64,000 bases of DNA from Limnothrix sp. BL-A-16 (GTDB lineage: Bacteria > Cyanobacteriota > Cyanobacteriia > CACIAM-69d). The position numbers and the translations under genes are program-made. The notes below the pieces were generated by a model, which was given only the letters and a program-made list of their open reading frames with translations, did no database searches and was not told the DNA's origin. The stretch lies in NCBI GenBank assembly GCA_041937175.2, contig CP166615.1, forward strand, positions 1,472,001 to 1,536,000, read 5' to 3'. Within the stretch, counting starts at the first letter, position 1. Every line of letters starts with the position of its first letter. This document shows positions 17,765-56,066 of this stretch, in pieces.

Positions 17765-18220
17765 TTAGGGATTCAGGAGACCAAATTCTTGAACCGCTGG
17801 CAAAAAGTTGCGGTTTTCGTGGCCGGGTTGGCTGAGCTTAATGAGCGCAAATCGCTGCAAGTCACTGAGCGATCGCCACTGTTGCTCGCTCACGGTGACT
17901 CCAACCCGCGCTGCTTGTGCTGCGACTGAATCGGGCAAGTCGGCACTCAGCCAAGGAAACGGGTTTTCCAGGGGCAAATCTTTGGGAATTTCACCCGATC
18001 GGGCTGCCACCAACTCACATAGCTCCTGGCGATAGGTTTCCTGCTCGGGCAAGGTGTCGCAAGGAGCCAAAACTAACTGCAAGCGATCGGCCTCGGACAG
18101 TTGGTTCCAGTGGTGCAGTTTGAGTTTAATGCCGACTCGATCGAGTCGGTAGCGAACCACCATGGGGATGCACCGTAACCCAGTGATGAAGTCTTGCTCA
18201 AACCGAAAGAAAGGTGACAT
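17765..18220 (-). CDS. Nitrate reductase-associated protein (NarM-like)
   Basis: FRFEQDF...LRCIPMVVRYRLD.VGIKLKLHHW...LQRFALIKLSQPGHENRNF. Start 18220, 18250 or 18349. Confidence 0.85.
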   Translation of the reverse strand: MSPFFRFEQDFITGLRCIPMVVRYRLDRVGIKLKLHHWNQLSEADRLQLVLAPCDTLPEQETYRQELCELVAARSGEIPKDLPLENPFPWLSADLPDSVAAQAARVGVTVSEQQWRSLSDLQRFALIKLSQPGHENRNFLPAVQEFGLLNP

Positions 18221-19208
18221 TTCCGAAACAATTTTTGGGCGATCGGCCATTGTGAGTGAATTGGTTGCTGAATGTTTCGTGACTGACTCAAAACCCATAG
18301 GAACCCTGAATACTCTGCTCTTGATGTTCTCAAGAGAGTTCTGAACCATGGAATCATAAATTGCAGCTTGCTATTTTTGACGATCTTTCTCTGAAATTTC
18401 TGACCAAGGACTGCAATTTTAGGCTTGTTTGGATTTAATCAGCGATGGGTGATTGCTGCGAAGTTTTGCGCTAGCATTGCCTTAACTAAATATTAACCAA
18501 TCTCAAGGGATCACCGAAAATGCTCCTAAAAAACTAAATCCAAGATGCAATCATTCACCAGGACTGCCAACCTGGGACTTGAATTTCTTGGAATTTTCAG
18601 CCAGTCTCTAACCATCCTGATCCACCTTGACGATGACTAAGTAATCCGATCGCCCGATCAATCCCGCCAATTCATCAACTCACCCCTGCTAAACATCCAA
18701 CGAAACAGCAGCTCTGAGAACCATACAGAGAAGCCTGTATTAAATCATTCCTGATTCGTAGATAAAATTACGGACTCAACGGGTGAGTTCACCGCTCTGT
18801 CTTCATTTTGACCGGGTTGAATTGATGGCTGTTGTATGACTGACCAGGTGATCGTTGATCGGTTCAGGTCTGCCACTCCCCCCGCCAGGAGTCGCTTTTG
18901 GGACTTGTTCCAAACATTCAAAGTAACCTTTAAATCGGTCACTAACCGATCTAATGACAACTGCTGTTTATGTCAGATCATGACTTGAAAGATAGCGCGA
19001 TTCAATGAGGCAGCGGCATCCGTTACCTTCGGCTGAAAACCTTTGGGAAGCGTATCAACCTGCCAATCAATAGTCTGTTTAATTTCTTCAGAAGCCCCCA
19101 AGTTAACTGAAGAATAGGACTAAACCTATGCTTTAAAGCAATTGATTCCACTGCATCCTTACAACAGGCCAAGCCTGCCACTGAAATTCCAGATCAGGAC
19201 ATCAACAT

Positions 19209-21059
19209 ATGGCGATTGATCTCAAGCAAATGGCGCAGGAGTTGCGACGTGCTCCTATTCTTGCCGATTGTTCTGTGCAAGAACTGGCAAGAGTTGTGCC
19301 CTATGCCGTGGAACATTTTCTGGAAAATGGCCAACCCTTATTTCAGTCAGGTAATCCTGCTTTAACCCTCTATTTTGTGCGCCGAGGTAAAGTGCAACTT
19401 TGGGCTGGGGGGCGCGTCATTGCGGAGGTGGAACATGGTTTTGTGGGCGAAGAGGCGGCCGTTGCCTCCGACTACTACATGGCTGATGCGATCGCGGTTG
19501 ACAACACGGAAGTGATTGCCTTGCCTCGCGAGGCTATTACCAAAGTGGCCGGTGTTGGCACTCCAACCATCGATCGATTCTACGCTTCCCTGCTCAGTCA
19601 TTACAGCGGGCAGCCTAACCGAGAACTGGAGAGTCGATCGCCCATTAATCAGCTCAAACGGAATGACTGGGTGCAATCCTGTGGCTGGATTTTATCAGTG
19701 CTGATCCCCGGTATTTTGTACTTAGCTTTGAGGGAAACTGCGGAATTTGACTGGAATTCCCAGATGTTTTTGATCGTACTCACATCCACGATCGTGATGT
19801 GGGTTTTTGGGATGGTTCCTGAATTTATTCCTGGTCTTTTTTGCATTCTGTCATTGCTAATTTTAGATATTGCTCCCAGTGAAGTCATTCTTTCTGGCTT
19901 TGCATCGGGCAGCTTTTTTATGGCACTCAGCCTCTTTGGGCTGGGAGCCGTTTTGATGGGGTCTGGATTAACCTATCGTCTAGTTTTGTGGCTCTCCCGA
20001 TTCATTCCCAAAACAGAAAGTTGGTATGCCACTGCTTTGTTTTTAACCGGATTGGCCATGACCCCAATTCTGCCTTCGGCGAATGGTCGAATTGGTCTGT
20101 TATCGCCTATTCTAACGGACACCATTGATGCCACAGGAGCCAAACCAGGTGGCAAAGCTGCCAGCCATCTAGCCTTTGCTGCCTTTAGTGGGGCGAGCTT
20201 GCTTTCCCATGTATTTCTGAGTAGTAAATCCGCCAATTTTGTGGTTTATGGTCTCTTGCCTTTACAGGTTCAACAACAATTTAGTTGGGTCTATTGGTTG
20301 CAAGCGAGCTTAGTGGTGGGGATCGTGACCCTAGTGCTGTACTTTATTTCCACAAAATTCCTATTTAGCAATAATCAAGCCTTTGAAATTTCCCAACAAC
20401 AGGTGGAAGCTCAGGTGGAAACCCTGGGCCCCTTGAGCAGCCAAGAGTGGATTTCGCTGGTCAGCACGATCGTGTTGTTGCTGGGAATCGTCACCGCATC
20501 CATTCACAAAATCCAATTGCCCTGGATTGGTTTGGGGGTTCTATTTCTGGTGCTATCGCTGGGGATTTTGAAAAAAAATGAATTTCGCACTCAAATTGAC
20601 TGGCCATTTTTGATTCTACTGGGCAGTTTGGTCGGAATTGCAGAAGCCATGTCCTACTTAGGTCTTGATACTCACTTTGGTGGGTATTTGACTTGGCTTA
20701 GCGATTCTATGAACTCCAATTTTCCTCTTTTTATCTTTTTATTGAGCCTGACAATTCTGGTTGTACGATTTGTGATCCCCAACACGACTGCCGTTGCAAT
20801 TTTTGCCACAATATTAATCCCGATGGCGGAAAGCAATGGAGTGAATCCTTGGATTGTGGGAGCGATTATCCTGAATATCAGCGATGCTTGGTTTTTTCCT
20901 TACCAATGTTCTTACTATCTACAATTTCAGGAGCTATTGGACAAACAGCAACTTTTTAATGAGCGTTTAATTTTACGAGGCAACTTACTGACAACGCTGA
21001 TTCGCTTCTTTTCAATCTATCTATCATTAGGATATTTTCGTACCCTTGGAATTCTCTAG
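19209..21059 (+). CDS. cNMP-binding (CAP-type) domain fused to a DASS/SLC13-family anion permease
   Basis: N-terminal LFQSGNPALTLYFVRRGKVQL...GFVGEE. C-terminal multi-pass membrane domain with LSGFAS, PILPSANGR, IDWPFLILLG, IPNTTA. Confidence 0.85.
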   Translation: MAIDLKQMAQELRRAPILADCSVQELARVVPYAVEHFLENGQPLFQSGNPALTLYFVRRGKVQLWAGGRVIAEVEHGFVGEEAAVASDYYMADAIAVDNTEVIALPREAITKVAGVGTPTIDRFYASLLSHYSGQPNRELESRSPINQLKRNDWVQSCGWILSVLIPGILYLALRETAEFDWNSQMFLIVLTSTIVMWVFGMVPEFIPGLFCILSLLILDIAPSEVILSGFASGSFFMALSLFGLGAVLMGSGLTYRLVLWLSRFIPKTESWYATALFLTGLAMTPILPSANGRIGLLSPILTDTIDATGAKPGGKAASHLAFAAFSGASLLSHVFLSSKSANFVVYGLLPLQVQQQFSWVYWLQASLVVGIVTLVLYFISTKFLFSNNQAFEISQQQVEAQVETLGPLSSQEWISLVSTIVLLLGIVTASIHKIQLPWIGLGVLFLVLSLGILKKNEFRTQIDWPFLILLGSLVGIAEAMSYLGLDTHFGGYLTWLSDSMNSNFPLFIFLLSLTILVVRFVIPNTTAVAIFATILIPMAESNGVNPWIVGAIILNISDAWFFPYQCSYYLQFQELLDKQQLFNERLILRGNLLTTLIRFFSIYLSLGYFRTLGIL

Positions 21060-21179
21060 ATCATTGCTGAAGACCATGAAATCAACTTTGAGAGACTCCT
21101 CAACGAGCATTCATCTGATCTTTGCGTTTCAAGCGATGGCAGCTTAAGGCCGATCCACTTCTCCACTCACTCTCTAGCC

Positions 21180-22238
21180 ATGTCACGATTTACCTGGAAG
21201 CTTTCTAACGTTAACCGCTGGGGCAAGCAGCTTCAAAAATTGCCAATTATTTTCTTTCTGATTTGTGCCTTGGTGTTCTTTGCCTTCAGCAACTCTAGTA
21301 AGCCGCGTGTATTGGTGCTGAGCAGTTATGCCACGGACTTTGCTTGGACGAAGGACATCAATGTGGGGCTGAGCTGGATTCTGGATAAGAAGCCCTACTC
21401 GATTCAGTATCACTACATGGATACGAAGCGGAATCCTGGTGCGGCTTACAAGGAAAAGGCAGGTCAATTGGCGAGGCGGCTAATTGAGCGCTGGGAACCC
21501 AATGTGATTATTTCGATCGATGACAACGCTCAAGAGTTTGTCGCCAAGCATTTCAACAATCACCCCAAGATTGATATTGTCTACAGCGGGGTGAATGCAG
21601 AAGCCAGCGCCTACGGATTTGACAAAGCCAGCAATGTGACGGGCATTTTGGAGCGGATTCCCTTCCTTTCTCTGAAGGAGATTTTTCTGCAAATTTTGCC
21701 GCCCGATCGCCGTCGCATTGTTCACTATTCCGATGACTCAGAAACATCGGAAGCCATTCACCAAGAAATGGCAAATTTTGACTGGCGGCCGATCGACCTA
21801 ATCGAACACCGAAAAGTAGCTACCTTTGAAGAGTGGAAGCAATTTATCAAGAATTCCGGCAAAATTGCTGACTTTTTGCTGATCACGCACTATCACACGC
21901 TGCGCCGTTCCAGTACCGATGATACGGTGGTGTCGCCGAAGGAAGTGATGAAGTGGACGATCGAGAACTCACCGATCCCTGATATTGGATGCTGGGGATT
22001 TTATGTGGATGATGGCGGCATGTTAGCGGTTGGAATTTCGCCCTATGAAATGGGAGAAGTGGCCGGCAAAATGACGACGGAAATCTTGGAAAATCATCGC
22101 CGCCCCAGCGAAATTCCCAACACGAAAAGCCAGAATTTTGTGATGTATATGCGGGAGTCGCGGCTCAAGCAATATGGCGTTGATCTCCCCAAGGTGTATA
22201 AGGACTTCGCCCACGCCACCAACCACTACTACCAATAG
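21180..22238 (+). CDS. Membrane-anchored solute-binding protein (ABC_sub_bind-like)
   Basis: N-terminal TM, RVLVLSSY...W, YMDTKRN, IISIDDNAQ, YSGVN, NVTGILER, PYEMGEVAG. Confidence 0.8.
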   Translation: MSRFTWKLSNVNRWGKQLQKLPIIFFLICALVFFAFSNSSKPRVLVLSSYATDFAWTKDINVGLSWILDKKPYSIQYHYMDTKRNPGAAYKEKAGQLARRLIERWEPNVIISIDDNAQEFVAKHFNNHPKIDIVYSGVNAEASAYGFDKASNVTGILERIPFLSLKEIFLQILPPDRRRIVHYSDDSETSEAIHQEMANFDWRPIDLIEHRKVATFEEWKQFIKNSGKIADFLLITHYHTLRRSSTDDTVVSPKEVMKWTIENSPIPDIGCWGFYVDDGGMLAVGISPYEMGEVAGKMTTEILENHRRPSEIPNTKSQNFVMYMRESRLKQYGVDLPKVYKDFAHATNHYYQ

Positions 22239-22266
22239 GCTGGCTGAGCAATCCAGAGATTCAGTT

Positions 22267-22311
22267 GGGGTTTAGGGGATCCGAGCCACGGCCCCTGAAC
22301 CCCTTTAATTT
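22267..22311 (+). terminator. Rho-independent terminator after the binding-protein gene
   Basis: Stem GGGGTTTAGGGG...CCCCTGAACCCC followed by TTTAATTT. Confidence 0.7.
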
Positions 22312-22476
22312 GTAATTTTGGGTGTTTTGTCGAACCTTGGGCAGATATTCAGGCTGGCGATGTGGGCTGACATGAGGATCTGCTCGGGTTCTGGCAACGG
22401 GTTCTTGTTCGGTTTGCTGGGTTGGCTCGACTGGCTGAGTTGCGTTCAGTTGTGCTCAGACTTGCTCATGCTAGCA

Positions 22477-22540
22477 GCGTGACCCATTCAGCGTGATCTA
22501 TTCAGGGCGACCCATTTAGGGCGACCCATTTAGGGCAACC
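22477..22540. repeat. Tandem array, about 4.5 x 14 bp
   Basis: gcgtgacccattca/gcgtgatctattca/gggcgacccattta/gggcgacccattta/gggcaacc. Confidence 0.85.
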
Positions 22541-23097
22541 AACGAGGAATTTATGTTCAATCGAAGGGGTTTCTACGTAGAGGGTTGGTGATCGATTTTA
22601 CTTGAATTGATCTGGTTGGCTTTGCTCTTCTTGAGTGGCAATGGCTTAGCCAGAATATGTTTAGGGCACTCTTTTGAATATCGCTCTTGGAATCTCAAGC
22701 TTAATGTCAGTGTAATTTGATGCGCTTGAGTCAAGATCTTTCGGTCTGAGACTAGGTTCGATCATAAAAGCCTATTGAAATTGAGTAGATCTTGTTAGAA
22801 CTTTAAAGATTGTTGTCAATTGCGATTTTGAAATTCCATGAAGAGTAATAGACCATTTTTTGTGAAATCTTGATGATGTTGTTTGATTTTTCTGCGGATT
22901 TTGAAGCAGGAAGATTGAACAGTCAAGGGAAGGCGATCGCGAATTTGAGAATAGGAGACTGAGCATCTTTTGCTATCTCGCTGGGCGGAGCTTGGAGCGA
23001 TTGACCAGCACCCATGACTCTGTTCCTGGATCATGAGCGCTGGGTAAGATGAAGGTGGGGGTAAACACTCGCATCGCATCTCGCTAGCTGCGGATTC

Positions 23098-25218
23098 ATG
23101 GCTGAAGACGAATCAAAGTCATGGTGGCCGCTGCTAAACCTACATTTTGAGTGTGTCTCTCTGAGGTTGTTTGTGAACCGCTGGCGTTGGAGTTGGAATC
23201 CGGCTCGCTGGAAAATTGCGCCCAAGCTGTCGGCGGCTTTGTTGGCTGCGTCGCTGCTGCCAATGAGTCTGACGGCGTTTTATAACCTTCGCCAAAGCCT
23301 GTATACGGTCAAAATGGCGGAGTATAAAAATCTGGAGCTGTTGGCAAAAAGTGTAGCGGCTCGACTGGATCAGTTGCTGATTGACACGCAACGGGTGGGG
23401 ATTCAGGTGGCTAGTGCCCGGGACATTGTGCAATTTGCGGGTTCGGTGGCGGCGAAAGAACCTCAGGAAAAACAGAATTATTGGCGAATTTTGGCGGCTG
23501 AAGCGATCGCGAATGTTCGCAACTCCAATCCTGATTATTTTTCAGTGTTTCTGCTCGATCGCACGGGACGTTGTTTGGTTTCAACGAATCCCAGCAACAT
23601 TGGCAAGTCCTACGCCTTTCGCAATTATTTCCAAGAAGCGCGCCAAGGCAAACTCTACATTTCGGAATGGACGGTGGGATCCACAACGGGTCAGCCGGGG
23701 ATTTTCCTTTCGGTGCCGGTGGTAGCTAAGGGCACGCGCAATCTGCTGGGCGTGGTGGTGATTAAGCTGCGATCGGAGGCAGTGGGCCGCTTGCTCACCA
23801 GCTTGAACCAAAAGGAAGGCGGCTCTGCTTTCTTGGTCGATCAAAACGGAATTGTGATTGCCCACACGGATCGGCGTTGGGTCTATCGCAGCTTGTTGCC
23901 TCTGTCGCCTATGCAGTTGCGCACGATCGACCCGAAAGTCCAGTTTGGTCTCGATCGAATTGAAAGTTTGAATTTGCCGGTGTTGGCGCGATCGCTGCAA
24001 TTGCCCTCCGCTCCCACGGCTGCATCCTCGGCGGTTCCACTGCCCTCCATTACGCCCGCCGCCACCGCCACCCCCAACCAGTCAACGATAGGCCTAGGCC
24101 CGTCATCCTTCGGCAACATTGCCTATCGATCGCCCTTTACGGGCAAAACGGAAATCGTGGGTATGTCGGCTTTGGATATGCGGCCCTGGCGTTTGGCTAT
24201 CACGGAGCCAGAGTCGGTTTTTGTCACGCCGCTGAATGCACTGGCCCATCGCACCACGGCCAGTGTGTTCCTGGTGGGGGGAGCGGTGGCCCTGCTGGCG
24301 CTGGCCCTGGCCCGGAGTATTGTGCGGCCCTTGCACTTGCTCACCCGTGCGGCTCAGGAATTGCGGATGGGGCAGTTTGACCGGGCCCATGTGGACATTC
24401 AGGGCACTGATGAGCTGGGTTTGTTGGCGGCCACCTTTAACCAAATGGTTTCCGGTTTGCGGGAACGGGAACGGGAGCTGAATATTTTTGGGCGAATGGT
24501 GTCGCCTGTGGTGCGCGAACAACTATTACGGGGTGGGGTGGAGCTAGGCGGGCAAACCTGCTGGGTTTCGGTGCTGTTTTCCGATATTCGGGGATTTTCG
24601 ACCCTTTCTGAGCAATTAGATCCCCAAGGGGTGGTGGAATTTTTAAATGAATATATGACGGCGATGACGGAGGCCGTTGCGCCTTGGGGTGGCTATATCA
24701 ATAACTTCATTGGCGATGCGATCGTGGTGGTCTTTGGCGCGCCCGTACCCCAGCCGGATGCGGAGTGGTGTGCGGTGTCGGCGGCGTTGGCCATGCGCGA
24801 TCGCCTGGCGGAGTTGAATGAACATCGGCGCGCCCGTGGCCAAGTACCGATCCAAAGCGGCATCGGCATTGGCACCGGTCAGGCGGTGGCGGGTCAAATT
24901 GGCTCGCTCGATCGCCTGATTTACACCGTGATTGGGGACGCGGTGAACATTGCCGCCCGCCTGGAAACCCTGACCAAACAGTTCCCGGACTATCCCATTT
25001 TGATTAATGAAACCACTGCCCAAGCCCTGCGTGACTATCCAGAGGTGGTGCTCCATTCTCTTGGCCCACAGCGCCTGAAAGGTCGCCATGAGCCGGTGGA
25101 GGTCTATGCACCAATGCGGGCCGAAAGTGTTGTGGGCAGCGGTTCGGCGCGATCGATTGATTTGGCAAGTGATCTGGCGGTCGATCGGCAACAACATCGC
25201 CAATCCGCCACCAGTTAA
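23098..25218 (+). CDS. Class III nucleotide cyclase with periplasmic dCache and HAMP domains
   Basis: TM, Cache (YAFRNYFQEA), TM, HAMP (DELGLLAATFNQM), cyclase (LFSDIRGFS, FIGDA, YTVIGDAVNIAARLE). Start may be GTG at 23173. Confidence 0.92.
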   Translation: MAEDESKSWWPLLNLHFECVSLRLFVNRWRWSWNPARWKIAPKLSAALLAASLLPMSLTAFYNLRQSLYTVKMAEYKNLELLAKSVAARLDQLLIDTQRVGIQVASARDIVQFAGSVAAKEPQEKQNYWRILAAEAIANVRNSNPDYFSVFLLDRTGRCLVSTNPSNIGKSYAFRNYFQEARQGKLYISEWTVGSTTGQPGIFLSVPVVAKGTRNLLGVVVIKLRSEAVGRLLTSLNQKEGGSAFLVDQNGIVIAHTDRRWVYRSLLPLSPMQLRTIDPKVQFGLDRIESLNLPVLARSLQLPSAPTAASSAVPLPSITPAATATPNQSTIGLGPSSFGNIAYRSPFTGKTEIVGMSALDMRPWRLAITEPESVFVTPLNALAHRTTASVFLVGGAVALLALALARSIVRPLHLLTRAAQELRMGQFDRAHVDIQGTDELGLLAATFNQMVSGLRERERELNIFGRMVSPVVREQLLRGGVELGGQTCWVSVLFSDIRGFSTLSEQLDPQGVVEFLNEYMTAMTEAVAPWGGYINNFIGDAIVVVFGAPVPQPDAEWCAVSAALAMRDRLAELNEHRRARGQVPIQSGIGIGTGQAVAGQIGSLDRLIYTVIGDAVNIAARLETLTKQFPDYPILINETTAQALRDYPEVVLHSLGPQRLKGRHEPVEVYAPMRAESVVGSGSARSIDLASDLAVDRQQHRQSATS

Positions 25219-25440
25219 CCCAGAAGAACCATCCAGGCGATCGGCCACACGATTTAGGGCAATAGCGGCCAGCGTTTCCCTTGCCAGAGTCGCCCCTAGA
25301 CCGGGTGGCTGCCTTAATTCGCTGGGTTAAATGACATGGCTGTTACCGTCACCTGATCGTTAAGCAGCAAGATGCTCAAGCCCCTTGTTACCACGACTGG
25401 CTCCGCAACTTTGACCCAATGTATTGAGCCTGTCATGCTA

Positions 25441-26220
25441 CTAGACCGGGTGGCGCAAAACGCGGATCAGCGTGCCCTGGGGTGGCAGATTCTCTGGCCG
25501 CAGGGTCATGGTTTCCGTGTTCAAGGTTTTGATGTCGTAGCCGCTCATCAAGTTCAAGAAAGCCTCTAGACCATCCAGATCACATTGGCTATCGGCGGCC
25601 GCCGTGCGGTACTGGCTGGGGATCACCACCTTGGGTTGCAACGACTCGATCGCCCGTTTTGCTTCCTCAGCGTTATAGGCCTTCGATCCGCCGCCCACCG
25701 GCACAATCGCCACATCGGGCCGCCCCATCAGAATTTTTTCTTCCACGCCCAAAGGAGCCGCAATGCCGCCCAAGTGCAGGACGGAGATGCCCCCCTGCTT
25801 CCAGCGCCAAACCACATTGTCGCCAAATCGCCGCCCCCCAAATCGATCGTGGGCGGTGCGAATGCCTTGGAATTGGTTACCGCGAAACTCAAATGTCCCC
25901 GGCTCAAACAGCAAACTGGGATTGCCCGGCAGGTTGCTGACAAATCCCTCATCAAGCAGTTGGCTGCTGATGGTTACGAGATCGGCGGTGAAGTTGGGCG
26001 ATCGATAACCGGCGGTGCAACCCAGCGTGTTGAAAGGATTACTCAGGATCCGTAGACCACCCCCGGTGAAGGCAAAGCAAGTGTGGCCCAAGGCCTGAAT
26101 CGTTAAGCCATCGGCGGCTTGGGCTGAAGTTGCATGGCTCCCGATCGCACTGGCCAGGGCGGCCCCTGCACCCATCAGGCCATATCGCAGAATTTGCCGC
26201 CGATTGATCCACCGATCCAT
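25441..26220 (-). CDS. Tat-exported MBL-fold metallo-hydrolase-like protein
   Basis: NRRQIL twin-arginine signal; LGHTCF, HLGG, VPVGG; metal-binding motif degenerate. Confidence 0.8.
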   Translation of the reverse strand: MDRWINRRQILRYGLMGAGAALASAIGSHATSAQAADGLTIQALGHTCFAFTGGGLRILSNPFNTLGCTAGYRSPNFTADLVTISSQLLDEGFVSNLPGNPSLLFEPGTFEFRGNQFQGIRTAHDRFGGRRFGDNVVWRWKQGGISVLHLGGIAAPLGVEEKILMGRPDVAIVPVGGGSKAYNAEEAKRAIESLQPKVVIPSQYRTAAADSQCDLDGLEAFLNLMSGYDIKTLNTETMTLRPENLPPQGTLIRVLRHPV

Positions 26221-28178: not shown

Positions 28179-28943
28179 ATGACCCTTGCCCTGCCTAATC
28201 CTCAGCCCCGATCGCCCATTTCCGATCGCCCGCCAGTTATTCAACTCTCCGAGATCTACAAAATCTATGGCAGCGACAACACCGAAGTGCGCGCCTTGAA
28301 TGGGGTCAACTTGGTGGTGGACAGTGGTGAATATTGCTCAATTATGGGCGCATCGGGTTCCGGCAAATCCACCATGATGAATGTGATTGGTTGCCTCGAT
28401 CGCCCCAGTTCCGGGCGCTATCGGCTTGATGGCATTGACGTGGCCGAACTGAACGAAAAAGACCTGGCCACGGTTCGCAATCGAAAGCTGGGGTTTGTGT
28501 TTCAGCAATTTCACCTGCTGCCCCAACTGAGTGCCCTGGAAAATGTCATGTTGCCGATGGTCTACGCGGGGGTGTCCAGTGGGGAGCGACGACAGCGGGC
28601 CTTGGACGCTTTGGGCCGAGTGGGTTTGGGGAATCGGGTGAATAATCGACCCAACCAACTGTCTGGGGGGCAGCAACAGCGGGTGGCCATTGCGCGCGCG
28701 ATTGTGAACCGCCCGATCGTACTGTTGGCCGACGAACCAACCGGCGCACTGGACACCAAAACCACCCAAGAAGTGCTGGATATTTTTGAAGAATTAAACC
28801 AAAGCGGCATGACCGTGGTGATGGTGACCCACGAACCGGAGGTGGCCCGTCGTACCCATCGTGTGGTTTGGTTTCGGGATGGGCAGGTTTTGCACGATCG
28901 CCTCCATCCCGAAGATTTGGGACAAGTGACCTCTGTTGCCTAA
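28179..28943 (+). CDS. ABC transporter ATP-binding protein (LolD/MacB-like)
   Basis: GASGSGKS, GFVFQQFHL, LSGGQQQR, LLADEPTGALD, VTH. Confidence 0.93.
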   Translation: MTLALPNPQPRSPISDRPPVIQLSEIYKIYGSDNTEVRALNGVNLVVDSGEYCSIMGASGSGKSTMMNVIGCLDRPSSGRYRLDGIDVAELNEKDLATVRNRKLGFVFQQFHLLPQLSALENVMLPMVYAGVSSGERRQRALDALGRVGLGNRVNNRPNQLSGGQQQRVAIARAIVNRPIVLLADEPTGALDTKTTQEVLDIFEELNQSGMTVVMVTHEPEVARRTHRVVWFRDGQVLHDRLHPEDLGQVTSVA

Positions 28944-31086: not shown

Positions 31087-31446
31087 ATGGCGCTGGACTT
31101 GCATGGGATGCGATTGCCTATGATTTCGCTACCGATCGAGTGGCCGACTGAGGCGATCGCGGCCTGGGGCGATCGCTGGTTGGTGTCTGAGTTATCGCTG
31201 TTTGGATCGATTTTGCGTCAGGATTTTCGTGCGGATAGTGATATCGATTGTCTTGTCTCGTTCAGACCCGAGGCAGATTGGAGCCTACTCGACCATTTGC
31301 AAATGCAGCAGGAGTTAATCGAGATTTTGAGACGAGATGTGGATCTGGTGAGTAAACGGGCGATCGATCGTAGTCAGAACTGGCTCCGCCGCCAGGAAAT
31401 TCTTTCTACTGCCCAAGTCATTTACACAGGGCCGGTTTATGCCTAG
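31087..31446 (+). CDS. MNT (minimal nucleotidyltransferase) antitoxin, MntA-like
   Basis: GSx10DxD motif LFGSILRQDFRADSDID; VDLV. Start may be 31120. Confidence 0.9.
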   Translation: MALDLHGMRLPMISLPIEWPTEAIAAWGDRWLVSELSLFGSILRQDFRADSDIDCLVSFRPEADWSLLDHLQMQQELIEILRRDVDLVSKRAIDRSQNWLRRQEILSTAQVIYTGPVYA

Positions 31447-31771
31447 CCAGCGTGATCAACAAGTGCTTCTAGATATTGTTCGATCGGCAAATAAAATCAT
31501 CGAGTTTATCCAGGGACTTGATCGATCTAGCTTCCTAGCTGATGAAAAGACACAATCCGCTGTTATCTTTCAACTGCTGATTATCGGAGAAGCAACTAAG
31601 CGCCTATCTAGGGAATTTAGAGAGGAGTCTCAGCAAGTTCCTTGGGGATTAATGGCAGGAATGCGAGACAAGTTAATCCATGACTATGATGATATTGATA
31701 GCGAGGAAGTTTGGAGAACGGCGAGCCATGATATTCCAAATTTATTGCCCTTAATTGAATCACTAAATTAA
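31439..31771 (+). CDS. HEPN (DUF86/HepT-like) RNase toxin
   Basis: IIGEA, Rx4H motif MRDKLIHDY; start overlaps the MNT stop. Confidence 0.9.
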   Translation: MPSQRDQQVLLDIVRSANKIIEFIQGLDRSSFLADEKTQSAVIFQLLIIGEATKRLSREFREESQQVPWGLMAGMRDKLIHDYDDIDSEEVWRTASHDIPNLLPLIESLN

Positions 31772-35299: not shown

Positions 35300-37801
35300 A
35301 TGATAATGAAAGAAGGATATATAGCAGACTTTGTTAGCGGACTGTCTGTCCGCGCCACACCCGAAGAAATAGAAGCTGTGCAAGTATTTTCAAAGATGCT
35401 TGTTGATGACTATGGCTATCCTAAAGAACTAATTCAAACTCGACCGCAGTGGCGAGTAAAAGCTCGTCCGTCAGATACGCGAAAAGAGTATCCAGTTGAT
35501 ATTGCAGTTTTCAATTCACAAGATCATAAAGAAGACAATATTGAAATTATTGTTGAATGTAAAAAAGCCAACCGAAAAGATGGTCGTACACAACTGGAAG
35601 ACTATCTCCGCTTTTCTACTTCTCAATTGGGTGTATGGTTTAACGGAGAGGAGAAGCTTTTCTTAAAAAAGACTGAGACAAAAGGGAAGGTGATATTTGA
35701 AGAGATTCCTAATATACCGAAGTTTGGAGAACGGCTTGAAGATATCGGTCTTTACAAGCGAAAAGACTTGAAGCCAGCACATAATCTGAAAAGTGTATTT
35801 CGGACTATCCGCAATTATCTCGCGGCTAATGCAGTTGGCATCACGCGCGATGAAGTTTTTGCGCAGCAGATAATTAATTTGATTTTTTGCAAGATCTACG
35901 ACGAACGATTCACAAAGCCAGAGGATACGGTCAAGTTTCGTGCTGGTATTGGTGAAAAGACATCCACAGTAAAGGATCGAATTCAACAGATTTTTGACCA
36001 CGTAAAGACAAAATATTCAGATGTGGTTGACAAAGCGGATGAGATTCTTCTTGATAACAATTCTCTCACTTATGTAGTTGGCGAATTACAGCTCTTCTGT
36101 TTAATTGATAGTGAACGCGATGCAATAGCAGATGCATTTGAAACTTTCATTGGTCCTTCACTGAAAGGTGGGCAGGGACAATTCTTTACTCCTCGTAACG
36201 TTGTCAAGCTGATCATTGAAATGGTCAATCCGACTACTGACGAGAAAGTGATTGACCCTGCATGTGGCAGCGGAGGTTTTCTAGTAGAAACAATACGGAA
36301 TGTATGGAAACATGTTGAGGAAAAAGGGATTTTGTTCGGTTGGCCGGAGTCAGAAATAGCTTCGGAGAAGCAAGAAGTAGCAATCAAGAACTTCCGGGGT
36401 ATCGATAAAGATAACTTTTTAAGCAAGGTTGCTAAGGCATACATGGCTATTGTTGGAGATGGCCGAGGGGGTGTTTATTGTGAAAACAGTCTCGATACTC
36501 CCAATCATTGGAAGCCCCTTGCTCGTGAAAACGTTCCCATTGGCTCATTCGATGTTGTTGTGACCAATCCTCCATTCGGGAAAAAACTCAAGATTGATGA
36601 CAAAACAATTCTTGAGTCTTATAAGTTGGGCCATAAATGGTCTTCCAACAAGGCGACCGGAGAGTTTGAACAACAGAATACACTGCACGCAGGACAAGCA
36701 CCACAAATCTTATTCATTGAGCGTTGCTTAGAGCTTCTGAAGGAGGGAGGACGACTTGGGATTATTGCCCCAGAAAGCATGTTCTGTAATCCATCGCACC
36801 GATACATTGTTCAATACATCAAATCAGTAGCTCGAATCAAAGCAATCGTTTCACTTCCTGAAGAATTATTTCAGCCCCACACACATGCAAAAACATGTGC
36901 GGTCGTCATTGAAAAGATTCCGACTGCTCACGATACTGGGCATGAAATATTTATGGCTATCGCAAAGTGGTGTGGTCATGACTCACGAGGACTACCCATA
37001 CCACATGATGACCTACCAAGAATACTAGAGAAGTATCTTGACTATACAGAGCAAGGAAGCCTGACCTATGATAATTGGGGTTTCATTATCAATGAAACCG
37101 ATATTCGGGATAATGTCTACCTCCCGAAATACTACAACCCAGAGATTCCGAAGAAATTGCAAACGCTAGAGGATACACATAATCTCTTGGTATTTGGCGA
37201 TTTGGTTGAACAAGGAGTCATAACAATTTCAACCGGCCACGAGGTTAGAAAATTATCCTATGGAACTGGAAACATTCCCTTTATACGTACATCAGATATT
37301 GCAAACTGGGAGATAAAGCTTGATCCCAAACAAGGCTTATCTGAAGACATCTATGAAGACTATAAGGATAGACAAGACGTTCAGGAAAATGACATCTTAA
37401 TGGTTCGTGACGGTACTTACCTTGTTGGAACCTGCGCACTAATCACGCAATATGACACTAAGATTGTTTATCAGAGCCATATCTACAAGATACGGTCTAA
37501 TAATCATGACATTCTTCATCCATATCTATTGCTTGCAGTCCTCACTAGCCCAATCGTGAAGGAACAGATATTCGCCAAACGGTTTACGCAAGATATCATT
37601 GATACTCTTGGTAGTCGAATTCATGAGCTTATCCTACCGATACCAAGGACGGCTCATCAGAGACAGGCAATTATAGAGAATGTGGGGACAGTGATTAGCC
37701 ATAAGAACGCTGCCCGAGAACTGGCGAGAAAAACTATTCTTGGCGTAGCGCCGGTTGGAGACAATTCGGATGTAACTGAGTTTTTAACAATGTCTAAATA
37801 G
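35300..37801 (+). CDS. Single-polypeptide restriction-modification enzyme (type IIG / type I-like fusion): nuclease, N6-adenine MTase, TRD
   Basis: PVDIAVF...IVECKK; GQFFTPR, IDPACGSGGFL, NPPF; C-terminal specificity domain IPFIRTSDI...DILMVRDG. Confidence 0.87.
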   Translation: MIMKEGYIADFVSGLSVRATPEEIEAVQVFSKMLVDDYGYPKELIQTRPQWRVKARPSDTRKEYPVDIAVFNSQDHKEDNIEIIVECKKANRKDGRTQLEDYLRFSTSQLGVWFNGEEKLFLKKTETKGKVIFEEIPNIPKFGERLEDIGLYKRKDLKPAHNLKSVFRTIRNYLAANAVGITRDEVFAQQIINLIFCKIYDERFTKPEDTVKFRAGIGEKTSTVKDRIQQIFDHVKTKYSDVVDKADEILLDNNSLTYVVGELQLFCLIDSERDAIADAFETFIGPSLKGGQGQFFTPRNVVKLIIEMVNPTTDEKVIDPACGSGGFLVETIRNVWKHVEEKGILFGWPESEIASEKQEVAIKNFRGIDKDNFLSKVAKAYMAIVGDGRGGVYCENSLDTPNHWKPLARENVPIGSFDVVVTNPPFGKKLKIDDKTILESYKLGHKWSSNKATGEFEQQNTLHAGQAPQILFIERCLELLKEGGRLGIIAPESMFCNPSHRYIVQYIKSVARIKAIVSLPEELFQPHTHAKTCAVVIEKIPTAHDTGHEIFMAIAKWCGHDSRGLPIPHDDLPRILEKYLDYTEQGSLTYDNWGFIINETDIRDNVYLPKYYNPEIPKKLQTLEDTHNLLVFGDLVEQGVITISTGHEVRKLSYGTGNIPFIRTSDIANWEIKLDPKQGLSEDIYEDYKDRQDVQENDILMVRDGTYLVGTCALITQYDTKIVYQSHIYKIRSNNHDILHPYLLLAVLTSPIVKEQIFAKRFTQDIIDTLGSRIHELILPIPRTAHQRQAIIENVGTVISHKNAARELARKTILGVAPVGDNSDVTEFLTMSK

Positions 37802-53465: not shown

Positions 53466-56066
53466 ATGACCTTTCGGGTAAAACTCTCGCTTCATGGTTG
53501 CCTGGCAACGGAGGGACTGTTAGCCCGTTTGGACTTGTGGCGCAGTCCCTATCACCAACAAACTTGCGATACTCGCCTGCCGCCTGCGCCGGAATTGGCC
53601 CAGGTGGCCACGGAATTTTGGGACTTGTGGGCGAGTTATCCCAACTTGCGAATTAAGGTGAAGGGCGTTCAGCGACAGTTGCCCCTTCCTCTGCATCGTC
53701 AACAGTGCCAAATCGCGGCCGATCGCCTGCAAACCCTGTTTAACAACTGGTTGGGGGGGGAAAGCTTTCGGGAAATGACCCATGAAATTCTGCGATTTAG
53801 CCATCCCAGTGATGATTTGTGGCTGTCGATCGCCACGGACGATCGCCATGTGCAAAGGTTGCCTTGGGACGAATGGAAGCCCTTGAAAGGTCACCGGTTT
53901 GCCTGGGGCTGTTGTTCAACCAGTGGCAAGACACCACCGATTCAGGTGAGATCGACCCCCGGAGTTGTGGTTCGGATTTTGGCGGTTTTGGGCGATCGGG
54001 TGGATTTAAACCTGGATCCCGATTATCAGGCTCTTCAACAATTGAGCAACGAGGGGTTGGCGGATGTGCAGTTGCTGGACGCGCCGACTCCTGAACAGTT
54101 TTTTGATGCGCTGCGAGATCAACAACCGCAAGTGCTGGTCTTTGCGGGCCATGGCTATCCCGAAACCAAAAGCCGATCGAGTCAGATTGGCCTTAACTTT
54201 CAGAACAACATTTCCGTAGAAAACTTCAGCCATGCCCTTGAAGGCGCGGTTCAACAGGGTTTGCAACTGGCGATTTTTAACTGTTGCCACAGTGTGGACT
54301 TGGCGGAAGCACTGCATCGATCGCACCTACCGGCCGCCATTGTGATGCGGGCTTCGGTGCCCGATCTGGTCGCTCAACATTTCCTCAAGGATTTTCTAAC
54401 TCACTACGCCCAATCGCGGTCGCTGCCCCTATCTCTGTACGAAGCCCGTCGATCGCTCCAACGCTCCAGCGCCGAATTTCCCAGGGCCGATTGGTTGCCG
54501 CTGGTGTTTCACCATCCCCTGTTAGATTTGCCCACTTGGCCCGATCGCGCCCACGCGGAAACCGATTTCCAAAGCTGGATTGAACCCGTTGGCCCCAGTG
54601 CAGCTCGGCCCGGCAGCGATCGGGCACTGAGGCAGGATCCAATCCAGAAATTTAGTCAGGAAGCCGGTCAAGAAATCAGTCAAAAATCAAGCCAGGAATT
54701 AGATCAGGAATCAAATCAGAAATTAGATCAGGAATCAAATCAGGCACTGAGTCCAGAAAACAATCAGCAAATTAGCTCGAAAATTAGCCTGAAAATTAGT
54801 CCGAAATCATTGCAACTGGGTGTGCAGGCACTTTTGGCCACGGGAATCACCATTGGCCTAGGCGGCATGATCCAGACCCCGGAGTTTTGGGTTTATGACG
54901 CAATGGTGCAGCGGCGGCCGTTGGAATTACAAGATCAACGCATTTTGCTGGTGACGATTGATGAAAATGACGTGGCTTATCAAGATCGTCAAGGTTGGCA
55001 ACGAATTCCAACGGCCGATGGCGGGTTAAATTCCGTGGCTCCGGAGGCCTTGGCCAAGCTTCAGGAGCGACTGGCCACCCTGAAACCCAGCGTCATTGGA
55101 GTGGATATTTATTACCCCTGGCCGCTGACATCCGCTTGGCAAAAGCGCCTTTGGTCGAATCCTCGGGTGGTGGGTTTGTGCAAATTAGCCGATCCAACGG
55201 AGTCTGTTGTGGAAATTCCGGCCCCAGTGGGCTTGAAGCGCGATCGGGTGGCTTTTTCTGACCAAGCCGACGATTCAGAAGGGGTGGTGCGACGGCAGCT
55301 CTTGGCCATGGCGGCTCCCAAGTCTAGCCAAACTTGTCACACTACCTATGGATTGAGCGGCCTGGTGGTGGATGAGTACCTCAAGCAACGGGGCGTGGCA
55401 AGTTTGACCGTTGGCAATCGCTGGCAGTATGGTTCCGTCACAATTCCCCAAATTACCGCCGGAGCAGGGGGGTATGGGTGGTTTGATGACCAAGGCAATC
55501 AACTGCTGTTGGCTCCTCGGCGGGCGGATTGGGTTCGTTTGCCGCTGCGGGAGGTGTTGCAAAGTACCGATCGAATTCCTTGGACTGGTCAACCCAACCC
55601 GATCGTTTTAATTGGCAATATTCAAGCCAGCTCCGGCGATTGGTGGAAACTGCCGGGTGGGCAGGAGATTCCGGGCTTGGAGATTCAGGCTCACGGCATC
55701 AGTCAACTGATTAGCGCGGTGCTGGACAATCGCCCCTTGCTTCAGGCGATCGCCTGGCCGCAGAAGGCGTTGTGGATTTTGCTCTGGGCAGTTCTGGGAG
55801 CAGGGCTGTTGGCGGTTTGGCAGGCACGATCCCCGCAGCCTCGTTGGTACGATCGGCTCTGGGTTTGGGCTTTTGGCTCGCTGATGGTGGGGGCGATCGG
55901 GATGATTAGCTTTTTTTGGGCGGCCTGGTGGTTACCGGTGGTTTCGCCCATGGTGGCGATCGGGCTGGTGTTGTTGCCATTGCCCGGGAGAAAGGGCCGT
56001 TCCCAGTTCTCCCGATGGCTAGGCCTGGTGCGGCGACTCCCTAGGCGATTGCTGAAGTCTTCTTGA
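53466..56066 (+). CDS. CHAT (caspase-like) domain, TM, CHASE2, 3 TM membrane protein
   Basis: RLPWDEW, FAGHG, IFNCC, DWLPLV (CHAT); RILLVTIDE, IGVDIY, DSEGVVRRQL, PGLEIQAH..SQL (CHASE2). Confidence 0.85.
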   Translation: MTFRVKLSLHGCLATEGLLARLDLWRSPYHQQTCDTRLPPAPELAQVATEFWDLWASYPNLRIKVKGVQRQLPLPLHRQQCQIAADRLQTLFNNWLGGESFREMTHEILRFSHPSDDLWLSIATDDRHVQRLPWDEWKPLKGHRFAWGCCSTSGKTPPIQVRSTPGVVVRILAVLGDRVDLNLDPDYQALQQLSNEGLADVQLLDAPTPEQFFDALRDQQPQVLVFAGHGYPETKSRSSQIGLNFQNNISVENFSHALEGAVQQGLQLAIFNCCHSVDLAEALHRSHLPAAIVMRASVPDLVAQHFLKDFLTHYAQSRSLPLSLYEARRSLQRSSAEFPRADWLPLVFHHPLLDLPTWPDRAHAETDFQSWIEPVGPSAARPGSDRALRQDPIQKFSQEAGQEISQKSSQELDQESNQKLDQESNQALSPENNQQISSKISLKISPKSLQLGVQALLATGITIGLGGMIQTPEFWVYDAMVQRRPLELQDQRILLVTIDENDVAYQDRQGWQRIPTADGGLNSVAPEALAKLQERLATLKPSVIGVDIYYPWPLTSAWQKRLWSNPRVVGLCKLADPTESVVEIPAPVGLKRDRVAFSDQADDSEGVVRRQLLAMAAPKSSQTCHTTYGLSGLVVDEYLKQRGVASLTVGNRWQYGSVTIPQITAGAGGYGWFDDQGNQLLLAPRRADWVRLPLREVLQSTDRIPWTGQPNPIVLIGNIQASSGDWWKLPGGQEIPGLEIQAHGISQLISAVLDNRPLLQAIAWPQKALWILLWAVLGAGLLAVWQARSPQPRWYDRLWVWAFGSLMVGAIGMISFFWAAWWLPVVSPMVAIGLVLLPLPGRKGRSQFSRWLGLVRRLPRRLLKSS

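Follow-up and report, generated by a model that had tools for sequence, protein, structure and literature searches.

Three co-oriented genes in the cyanobacterium Limnothrix sp. BL-A-16 raise the question of whether a carrier, a solute-binding protein and a nucleotidyl cyclase together form a self-contained circuit, in which an external solute is sensed and a cyclic nucleoside monophosphate (cNMP) gates its transport, as a sequence-only reading of the locus had proposed. The genes lie in a window of 64,000 nucleotides (contig CP166615.1, positions 1,472,001 to 1,536,000 of the forward strand), meaning the whole stretch of DNA that was analysed. Their positions as open reading frames (ORFs) and their Pfam matches agreed with the gene orientation and domains given in that reading:

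19209..21059, + strand: gene of the cNMP-like/DASS fusion carrier (ORF of 616 amino acids; Pfam cNMP_binding at residues 37-113 and Na_sulph_symp at residues 177-557).
21180..22238, + strand: gene of a PF04392 (ABC_sub_bind) binding protein (ORF of 352 amino acids, assigned by Pfam).
22267..22303, + strand: terminator-like hairpin with a U-rich tail, found by folding against shuffles, which ends the two-gene unit.
23098..25218, + strand: gene of a dCache_1-HAMP-Guanylate_cyc class III nucleotidyl cyclase (ORF of 706 amino acids, assigned by Pfam).

The conserved unit was found to comprise two genes, those of the carrier and the binding protein, and not three. Our preferred reading, to which we give an even chance of being right, is a two-subunit membrane system in which a tethered binding protein supplies a DASS carrier of the exchanger type; this carrier would have a regulatory domain that departs from the canon, and the system is often tied to signalling enzymes. 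The anchored PF04392 protein would capture an external solute and pass it to the DASS-fold carrier, which would move it by an elevator mechanism, as an exchanger; the N-terminal domain, homologous to cyclic nucleotide-binding (CNB) domains, would serve as a cytoplasmic regulatory or docking slot, and the cyclase would report either the same external cue or the carrier's state, and would not make a gating messenger.

Loci were collected with a 47-sequence alignment as the query, and comprised 79 genome loci (the best of 234 candidates) and 80 metagenome loci (the best of 206); these 159 loci were partly redundant, and 95 full-length pairs were left below 90% identity. A PF04392 binding-protein gene adjoined the fusion carrier in 147 of the 159 loci, with pairs from 10 phyla. 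Ten of the 12 loci without an adjoining binding-protein gene had less than 300 bp of sequence downstream (contig ends), and the other two were L066, in which the carrier is a second copy and the contig also bears a complete pair, and L176, with a binding protein of a different family. In the reverse search, 301 genomes from a single betaproteobacterial family were scanned with a binding-protein profile; 17 of them gave a match, each with the carrier directly upstream (n = 17/17). The pair persisted where the CNB domain had been lost (L023, L170, L172 and L181); the binding-protein gene was upstream of the carrier in 8 loci, and numerous pairs showed a stop/start overlap of 1 or 4 bases in our own gene calls. 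The proposal that binding protein and fusion carrier form a unit was thus borne out, and the argument for a functional unit is the same genomic one as that made for TAXI-GltS (PMC12344293).

It is very unlikely that the two genes are only co-regulated, with the binding protein serving receptors elsewhere and lying beside an ordinary stand-alone DASS exchanger. The carriers of L066 and L176, without this binding protein, and the partnership of sister binding proteins with receptors would fit such an arrangement, and characterised DASS carriers work alone; however, the two-way linkage is nearly complete (147/149 informative loci, together with the reciprocal cases), survives the gene-order swaps and holds where no receptor is nearby, and the L066 contig has its full pair. 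Distances among carriers and among binding proteins were correlated (r = 0.85), which is no evidence of contact because adjacent genes are inherited together; a prediction of the complex from 95-row alignments scored 0.25 against a mark of 0.32 and was used neither way. In L033, L106, L248, L029 and L094, the carrier gene, the binding-protein gene or both together were duplicated in tandem. The carrier family comprised 656 clusters at 50% identity (E up to 1e-30), among which other DASS proteins may be included, and has culturable hosts in Limnothrix and Pseudoalteromonas.

The carrier consists of an 11-helix membrane part joined by a disordered linker to the CNB-homology domain (about residues 5-133). 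The DASS fold was confirmed, since the model matched NaCT with Z 38.7, a root-mean-square deviation (rmsd) of 2.9 and 442 aligned residues, and the set of NaCT, NaDC3, VcINDY and DiT2.1 with Z 35-39, rmsd about 3 and 435-460 aligned residues; PF00939 scored 101 bits against a cut-off of 27. TIGR00785 scored 110 bits and did not reach its curated 198.6, which points to a divergent DASS subfamily, DctM gave only 22.9 bits, below its cut-off, and a PDB search with the membrane part as a single sequence returned no match. The nearest relatives by sequence were DiT1, DiT2.1 and LaINDY (E 3e-18 to 5e-15), followed by VcINDY (1e-7), and Foldseek also ranked the exchangers DiT1, DiT2.1 and LaINDY at the top; a distance-based structural aligner ranked inward-facing DASS structures of both clades together.

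The ion sites carry the signature of an exchanger and not of the Na+-coupled type that the earlier reading had named for characterised DASS carriers such as VcINDY. Arg294, equivalent to Arg159 of LaINDY at the Na1 site, was present in 95/95 aligned pairs and in 147/150 representatives; sections of Sauer et al. (PMC7553777) describe Arg159 as a Na+ surrogate found in exchangers only and absent from cotransporters. The Na1 site is thus not free of a basic side chain, and the carrier falls outside DASS-C, the VcINDY-type Na+ symporters. Arg520 (92/95) was placed at, or one residue beside, the position of LaINDY His392 in the Na2 site, position 559 was Asp or Glu in 95/95, and Gln566 was conserved; judged by the alignment, Arg520 and Asp559 may fill the Na2 site, with Asp/Glu559 as the counter-ion. 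Because Arg294 occupies Na1 as in exchangers, and Arg520 and Asp559 probably lie at Na2, the carrier is probably a Na+-independent DASS protein of the exchanger type. The substrate-site residues were strongly conserved in the carrier family, and the substrate loop gains a positive charge from Lys340 (Lys in 86/95, Arg in 6/95).

The N-terminal domain matched PF00027 (41 bits) and has the CNB fold (Z 17-18, rmsd about 2 against the PKA, PKG and MloK1 domains), so that the earlier label of a CAP-type cNMP-binding domain was right as to the fold; its phosphate-binding Arg is replaced by Tyr90. The phosphate-binding cassette comprises Gly80-Glu81-Glu82 and, further on, Tyr90, which aligned with the Arg of PKG. 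Position 90 was Tyr in 90 of the 95 sequences, His in 3, Phe in 1, Asn in 1 and Arg in 0, and among the 121 sequences that aligned out of 150 representatives at 50% identity it was Tyr in 93 and Arg in 3. The cassette Arg (Arg209 of PKA) anchors the cAMP phosphate, and families without it bind other ligands, as set out in sections of Kannan et al. (PMC2246266); an excerpt of Ober et al. (PMC10959531) connects loss of the Arg with nucleoside binding through a Glu, and the position of that Glu is Ala in the CNB-homology domain. The ribose-binding Glu81 was kept in the window carrier and in 88/95 sequences, and in 55/121 of the wider family. With a mean identity of 31%, the domain was the least conserved part, the membrane part standing at 46% and the other value compared at 45%. 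Of 137 loci whose upstream sequence was available, 131 had the domain; genuine absence was seen in L124, L170, L172, L181 and L023, and the domain was undetected in 25/150 representatives, some of which are fragments. In the clade of the window, these residues make it most likely that the domain lacks the usual cAMP/cGMP binding.

Judged by domain content, the N-terminal slot of the carrier family is modular, GAF and four-helix-bundle domains being fused in front in two other carrier relatives. Six relatives (P0277, P0298, P0330, P0321, P0202 and P0219) showed a canonical cNMP cassette, a long helical insert, or an additional CstA, GAF or four-helix-bundle domain.

The binding protein has the class I fold, with 3LKV, 3LFT and 6HNI as the closest structures at an identity of at most 20%, and scored 39.8 bits with the TrpX model, short of 390. 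Among PF04392 proteins of solved structure, the bound ligands are Trp, Tyr and Phe, according to sections of PMC10443332. An N-terminal helix was predicted (residues 11-39 of the model) with an invariant Phe26, no lipobox Cys was seen in the N-termini of relatives, and the helix reads as an uncleaved membrane anchor. No conserved ABC permease or ATPase neighbours were found among the scanned flanking genes of the pair loci. In the window, the earlier statement that neither an ABC permease nor an ATPase is nearby held as far as no permease adjoins; the nearest ABC ATPase gene (28179-28943, + strand), which we take to resemble the LolD/MacB exporter type, lies 5.9 kb downstream of the binding-protein gene with no permease beside it. 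In L217-L245, from the phylum of G079, members of a widespread stand-alone PF04392 subfamily immediately precede Cache/CHASE/PAS receptor genes in 24 of 29 loci; this pairing of an accessory sensor with a receptor is apparently little described.

Several observations weigh against a transporter fed by this protein. The two genes of the window are 120 bp apart and do not overlap. Both SNT substrate motifs are altered, to S-A-N and P-N-T in the window carrier and to Ser/Thr-Ala/Ile-Asn and Pro-Ile/Asn-Asn/Ser/Thr across the family, and Glu146 of LaINDY, the partner of Arg159, aligns with an invariant Gly281; with these changes, the site may bind a ligand without transporting it. Four distant representatives on two separate branches have a canonical Arg cassette (in three, a long insert precedes the carrier), so that in relatives the N-terminal slot can be a cNMP input. 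Neighbourhoods were compared in 45 loci, dereplicated at 70% and flanked on each side by 3 kb or more (cluster representatives were scanned and three long neighbours excluded); no constant metabolic neighbour pointing to a substrate was found in these loci, and a signalling gene of any kind lay within two genes of the pair in 23/45. In a second sample (301 genomes), 29 weaker relatives of the binding protein were fetched, all without the carrier, and in 24/29 a Cache/CHASE/PAS/HAMP/MCP receptor gene was directly downstream; as these relatives precede receptors, the binding-protein lineage is sensory by descent.

Some of these observations also serve the main rival reading, a rather unlikely one, namely a transceptor in which the DASS-fold protein replaces a Cache receptor, the loaded binding protein docks on it, and the elevator movement is relayed through the CNB domain to a cyclase, kinase or phosphatase, with little or no net transport. 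Its main support is the place of the sister binding proteins upstream of receptors; the signalling genes near the pair, the remodelled SNT motifs and the lack of a constant metabolic neighbour also speak for it, as do genes directly behind the pair in which a paralogous PF04392 domain is joined to a cyclase, histidine kinase or SpoIIE output (in L026, the binding protein is 27% identical to the sensor domain of such a cyclase fusion). Against a transceptor, signalling neighbours are missing from about half of the loci, and the entire transport core is retained; moreover, the obvious candidate for a relay, the CNB domain, shows the lowest conservation of all parts and has disappeared from some pairs.

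The link between the cyclase and the pair was real but optional. A class III cyclase was adjacent to the pair in 10/45 loci and within two genes in 13/45, whereas the chance of adjacency was about 0.3-1% (from 316 cyclase-like matches, a lower bound, in 50 carrier genomes hand-picked from the 79 loci with long flanks favoured). A true orthologue of the window cyclase was found in 8 of these 50 genomes and lay beside the pair in 8/8, supporting the earlier supposition of a link; cyclase-first searches (301, 401 and 301 genomes) added two new full-length orthologues, one in a full triad (G249) and one without the pair (G797). By FastTree placement on the carrier tree, the triad loci fell in Limnothrix and in four places within a betaproteobacterial clade. 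The cyclase is regarded as optional because it was found near the pair in no more than those 13 loci, was adjacent in 4 of the 15 genomes with examined flanks in a binding-protein-first family sample (17 genomes), and some carrier genomes have no class III match. A match to the window cyclase at 1e-20 was missing in 6/14 genomes of that family sample, and a PF00211 match was absent in 4 of 5 retested carrier genomes, two of them of 5.7 and 6.0 Mb, with genome completeness not given. Class III cyclases were hardly enriched in carrier genomes (11/17, against 77/141 of the family). The neighbouring cyclases were of at least three builds: some had the Cache-HAMP architecture seen in the window, some were fusions of PF04392 to a cyclase, and others were unrelated; elsewhere the slot was filled by PF04392-kinase, PF04392-SpoIIE, Cache-SpoIIE, Cache-PAS-kinase or Cache-cNMP genes. 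Surveyed across phyla, the fusion homologues thus kept the binding protein and only optionally the cyclase; conservation of all three genes failed at the cyclase, and the idea of a self-contained three-gene circuit found no support.

Two cyclases, those of G619 and G091, had been considered as further orthologues and were dropped, their match being limited to the HAMP/catalytic part. In G797 the orthologue (L194:8985-11744) is fused behind an alpha/beta hydrolase domain. In the cyanobacterial G619 (L193:6167-10981), an elevator carrier, a binding protein and a cyclase are combined once more: a DAACS (SDF) carrier and an SBP_bac_3/peptidoglycan-binding protein lie head to head with a Cache-HAMP cyclase.

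The catalytic residues of the window cyclase are intact (Asp496 and Asp540 for the metal, Asn617 and Arg621 for the transition state). The residue that sets specificity is Lys in adenylyl and Glu in guanylyl cyclases, according to sections of PMC4215837. Asn536 takes the place of this adenine-specifying Lys in all members of the cyclase subfamily with the domain (n = 62/62), and the nine PF04392-fused cyclases have Lys there; the product is unpredictable because of this replacement. The mycobacterial cyclase Rv1900c has Asn at the same position, yet makes cAMP.

The circuit as first proposed, in which binding protein and Cache domain sense the solute and the cyclase product, perhaps an unusual one, gates the carrier through its N-terminal domain, is accordingly weighed on both of its ends, and we consider it quite unlikely. 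It gains from the adjacency beyond chance, from the orthologue beside the pair in 8/8 genomes and in one of the two found cyclase-first, from the departure from the canon at both ends (Asn for Lys in the cyclases, Tyr for Arg in the sensor), and from the retention of Glu81 in most close sequences and of canonical cassettes in the four distant relatives; its sensing part is also favoured by the stand-alone relatives upstream of receptors. It loses by the fixation of Tyr90 also in loci whose neighbour is a kinase or a canonical Lys-type cyclase or that have no such neighbour, by the presence of Glu81 in less than half of the diverse representatives (55/121), by carrier genomes without a PF00211 match (4/5, completeness not given) and the slight enrichment of class III cyclases, and by the terminator-like hairpin between pair and cyclase. 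Gating by a cNMP found no support in a cassette whose Arg was absent in 95/95, a domain lost in several lineages, and partners that are not cNMP enzymes.

A terminator and about 860 bp had been noted before the cyclase gene, and both were recovered: the cyclase starts 859 bp after the binding-protein gene, against 120 bp between the genes of the pair, and the hairpin with its U-rich tail had a z of -4.2, with 0/200 shuffles as strong, leaving about 790 bp to the cyclase gene. The hairpin was absent from the output of a simple terminator scan; it recurred, with changes, in L024, and a different strong hairpin was found at the equivalent place in L104. The cyclase is probably its own transcription unit. 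A promoter scan was at chance level (7 vs 7.9). Metatranscriptome contigs of close relatives (X2, X4 and X6) spanned parts of all three genes, with low depth in 22316-22917, and the raw reads of X20 gave one read only; contigs cannot show transcripts, and these data therefore speak neither for nor against co-transcription. An imperfect short tandem repeat with a 14-base period (22475-22530) was observed in the gap before the cyclase. Behind the cyclase, at 25296-25454, an element of about 145 bp lies between 14-base direct repeats, and is probably a small dispersed repeat, since a contig of X4 runs without it and read depth is high there.

For the exchanger-type carrier of our preferred reading, the altered SNT motifs and the charge of Lys340 make an anionic substrate outside the C4-dicarboxylates probable. 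A phosphate or phosphoester product is our guess, slightly favoured over an aromatic amino acid or another carboxylate: secreted phosphatases (four families) or phosphate/phosphonate-type binding proteins were at most two genes away in 11/45 loci (hand count), and an alkaline phosphatase gene follows the pair in L252. HPPD and Lrp neighbours, which had suggested aromatic amino acids, were discounted as they occur in one clade only. In Proteobacteria (L044, L045, L120, L122, L152, L154 and L164), genes of a TAXI-type binding protein, TPR-secretin and pentapeptide-repeat proteins recurred upstream of the pair, and no TRAP membrane gene was among the scanned neighbours of these seven loci. Sel1, Tad pilus, secretin, pentapeptide and NarM neighbours were dropped as parts of the system, being lineage-bound.

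The nearest named record to the locus was Limnothrix redekei (96% identity), and the genome has one fusion carrier, one binding protein and about 18 class III cyclase loci. Lateral gain of the pair in the host lineage is suggested by its low G+C (46% and 48% for the carrier and binding-protein genes, against 55% for the genome; 48% and 60% at third positions, against 69-78% in ruvB and putA) and by its presence in both same-genus genomes while it was not found in five other genomes of the family. The narM gene for nitrate reductase maturation (17765-18349, - strand) is divergent from the carrier, a linkage confined to Limnothrix-like genomes. Further along the window lie a nucleotidyltransferase and HepT-like pair of the toxin-antitoxin type (31087-31771), a fused restriction-modification gene (35300-37801), a CHAT-CHASE2 protein (53466-56066), and, from about 63700 onward, another cyclase-like gene that runs past the window end.

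A description of the carrier/binding-protein system was not found in the open literature, with supplements, subscription journals and TCDB outside the scope of the search, and the pair is probably a so far undescribed transporter or sensor dependent on its binding protein. Only TRAP, TTT and TAXI-GltS are listed in PMC12344293 among secondary transporters working with a binding protein, and further classes are called for to test the elevator requirement. If the preferred reading is true, the pairing of a DASS carrier and a dedicated class I binding protein would test whether the elevator mechanism is a precondition; it would also be the first binding-protein-dependent transporter to have ion sites of the exchanger type and a cytoplasmic regulatory domain within the carrier. 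The bacterial CNB-fold domain and the cyclase subfamily, both with conserved non-canonical specificity residues, are cheap targets for ligand screens.

Among known systems, TAXI-GltS of Bordetella pertussis, as presented in sections of PMC12344293, shares with the pair a tethered binding protein coupled, genetically and translationally, to an elevator-type carrier that normally acts alone; unlike it, the window carrier is a DASS protein of the exchanger type with a cytoplasmic CNB-fold domain, and the binding protein is a class I PF04392 protein with a transmembrane anchor and not a TAXI lipoprotein. TRAP (DctPQM, SiaPQM) and TTT systems likewise combine a binding protein with a membrane unit of DASS-like fold, and TRAP chains matched the carrier at Z 19-24, whereas the fold is nearer to true DASS (Z 35-39), the pair has no DctP/TAXI/TctC-type binding protein and no DctQ-like subunit, and TRAPs are driven by Na+. 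LaINDY, AtDiT1 and AtDiT2.1 (sections of PMC7553777) were the top sequence and Foldseek matches and share the Arg at Na1, but they have neither a binding protein nor a regulatory domain, and the window carrier is below 20% identity to them and does not keep SNT, Glu146 or His392 unchanged. The N-terminal domain shares its fold (Z about 17-18) and the Gly-Glu start of the cassette with CAP/PKA-type CNB domains, and differs from canonical ones in having Tyr for Arg, as in the consensus motifs of CBS, NnR and ARSR (sections of PMC2246266); non-canonical CNB families without the Arg bind heme, chlorophenol acetate and nucleosides (sections of PMC2246266 and PMC10959531). LuxP-LuxQ, a class I binding protein beside a membrane signalling enzyme, fits the sister subfamily well, while the constant partner in the pair is the carrier and it is the enzyme that varies. 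NspS-MbaA is another system of accessory binding protein and receptor. In its gene logic, the system of the window follows TAXI-GltS and TRAP, and it is a member of neither.

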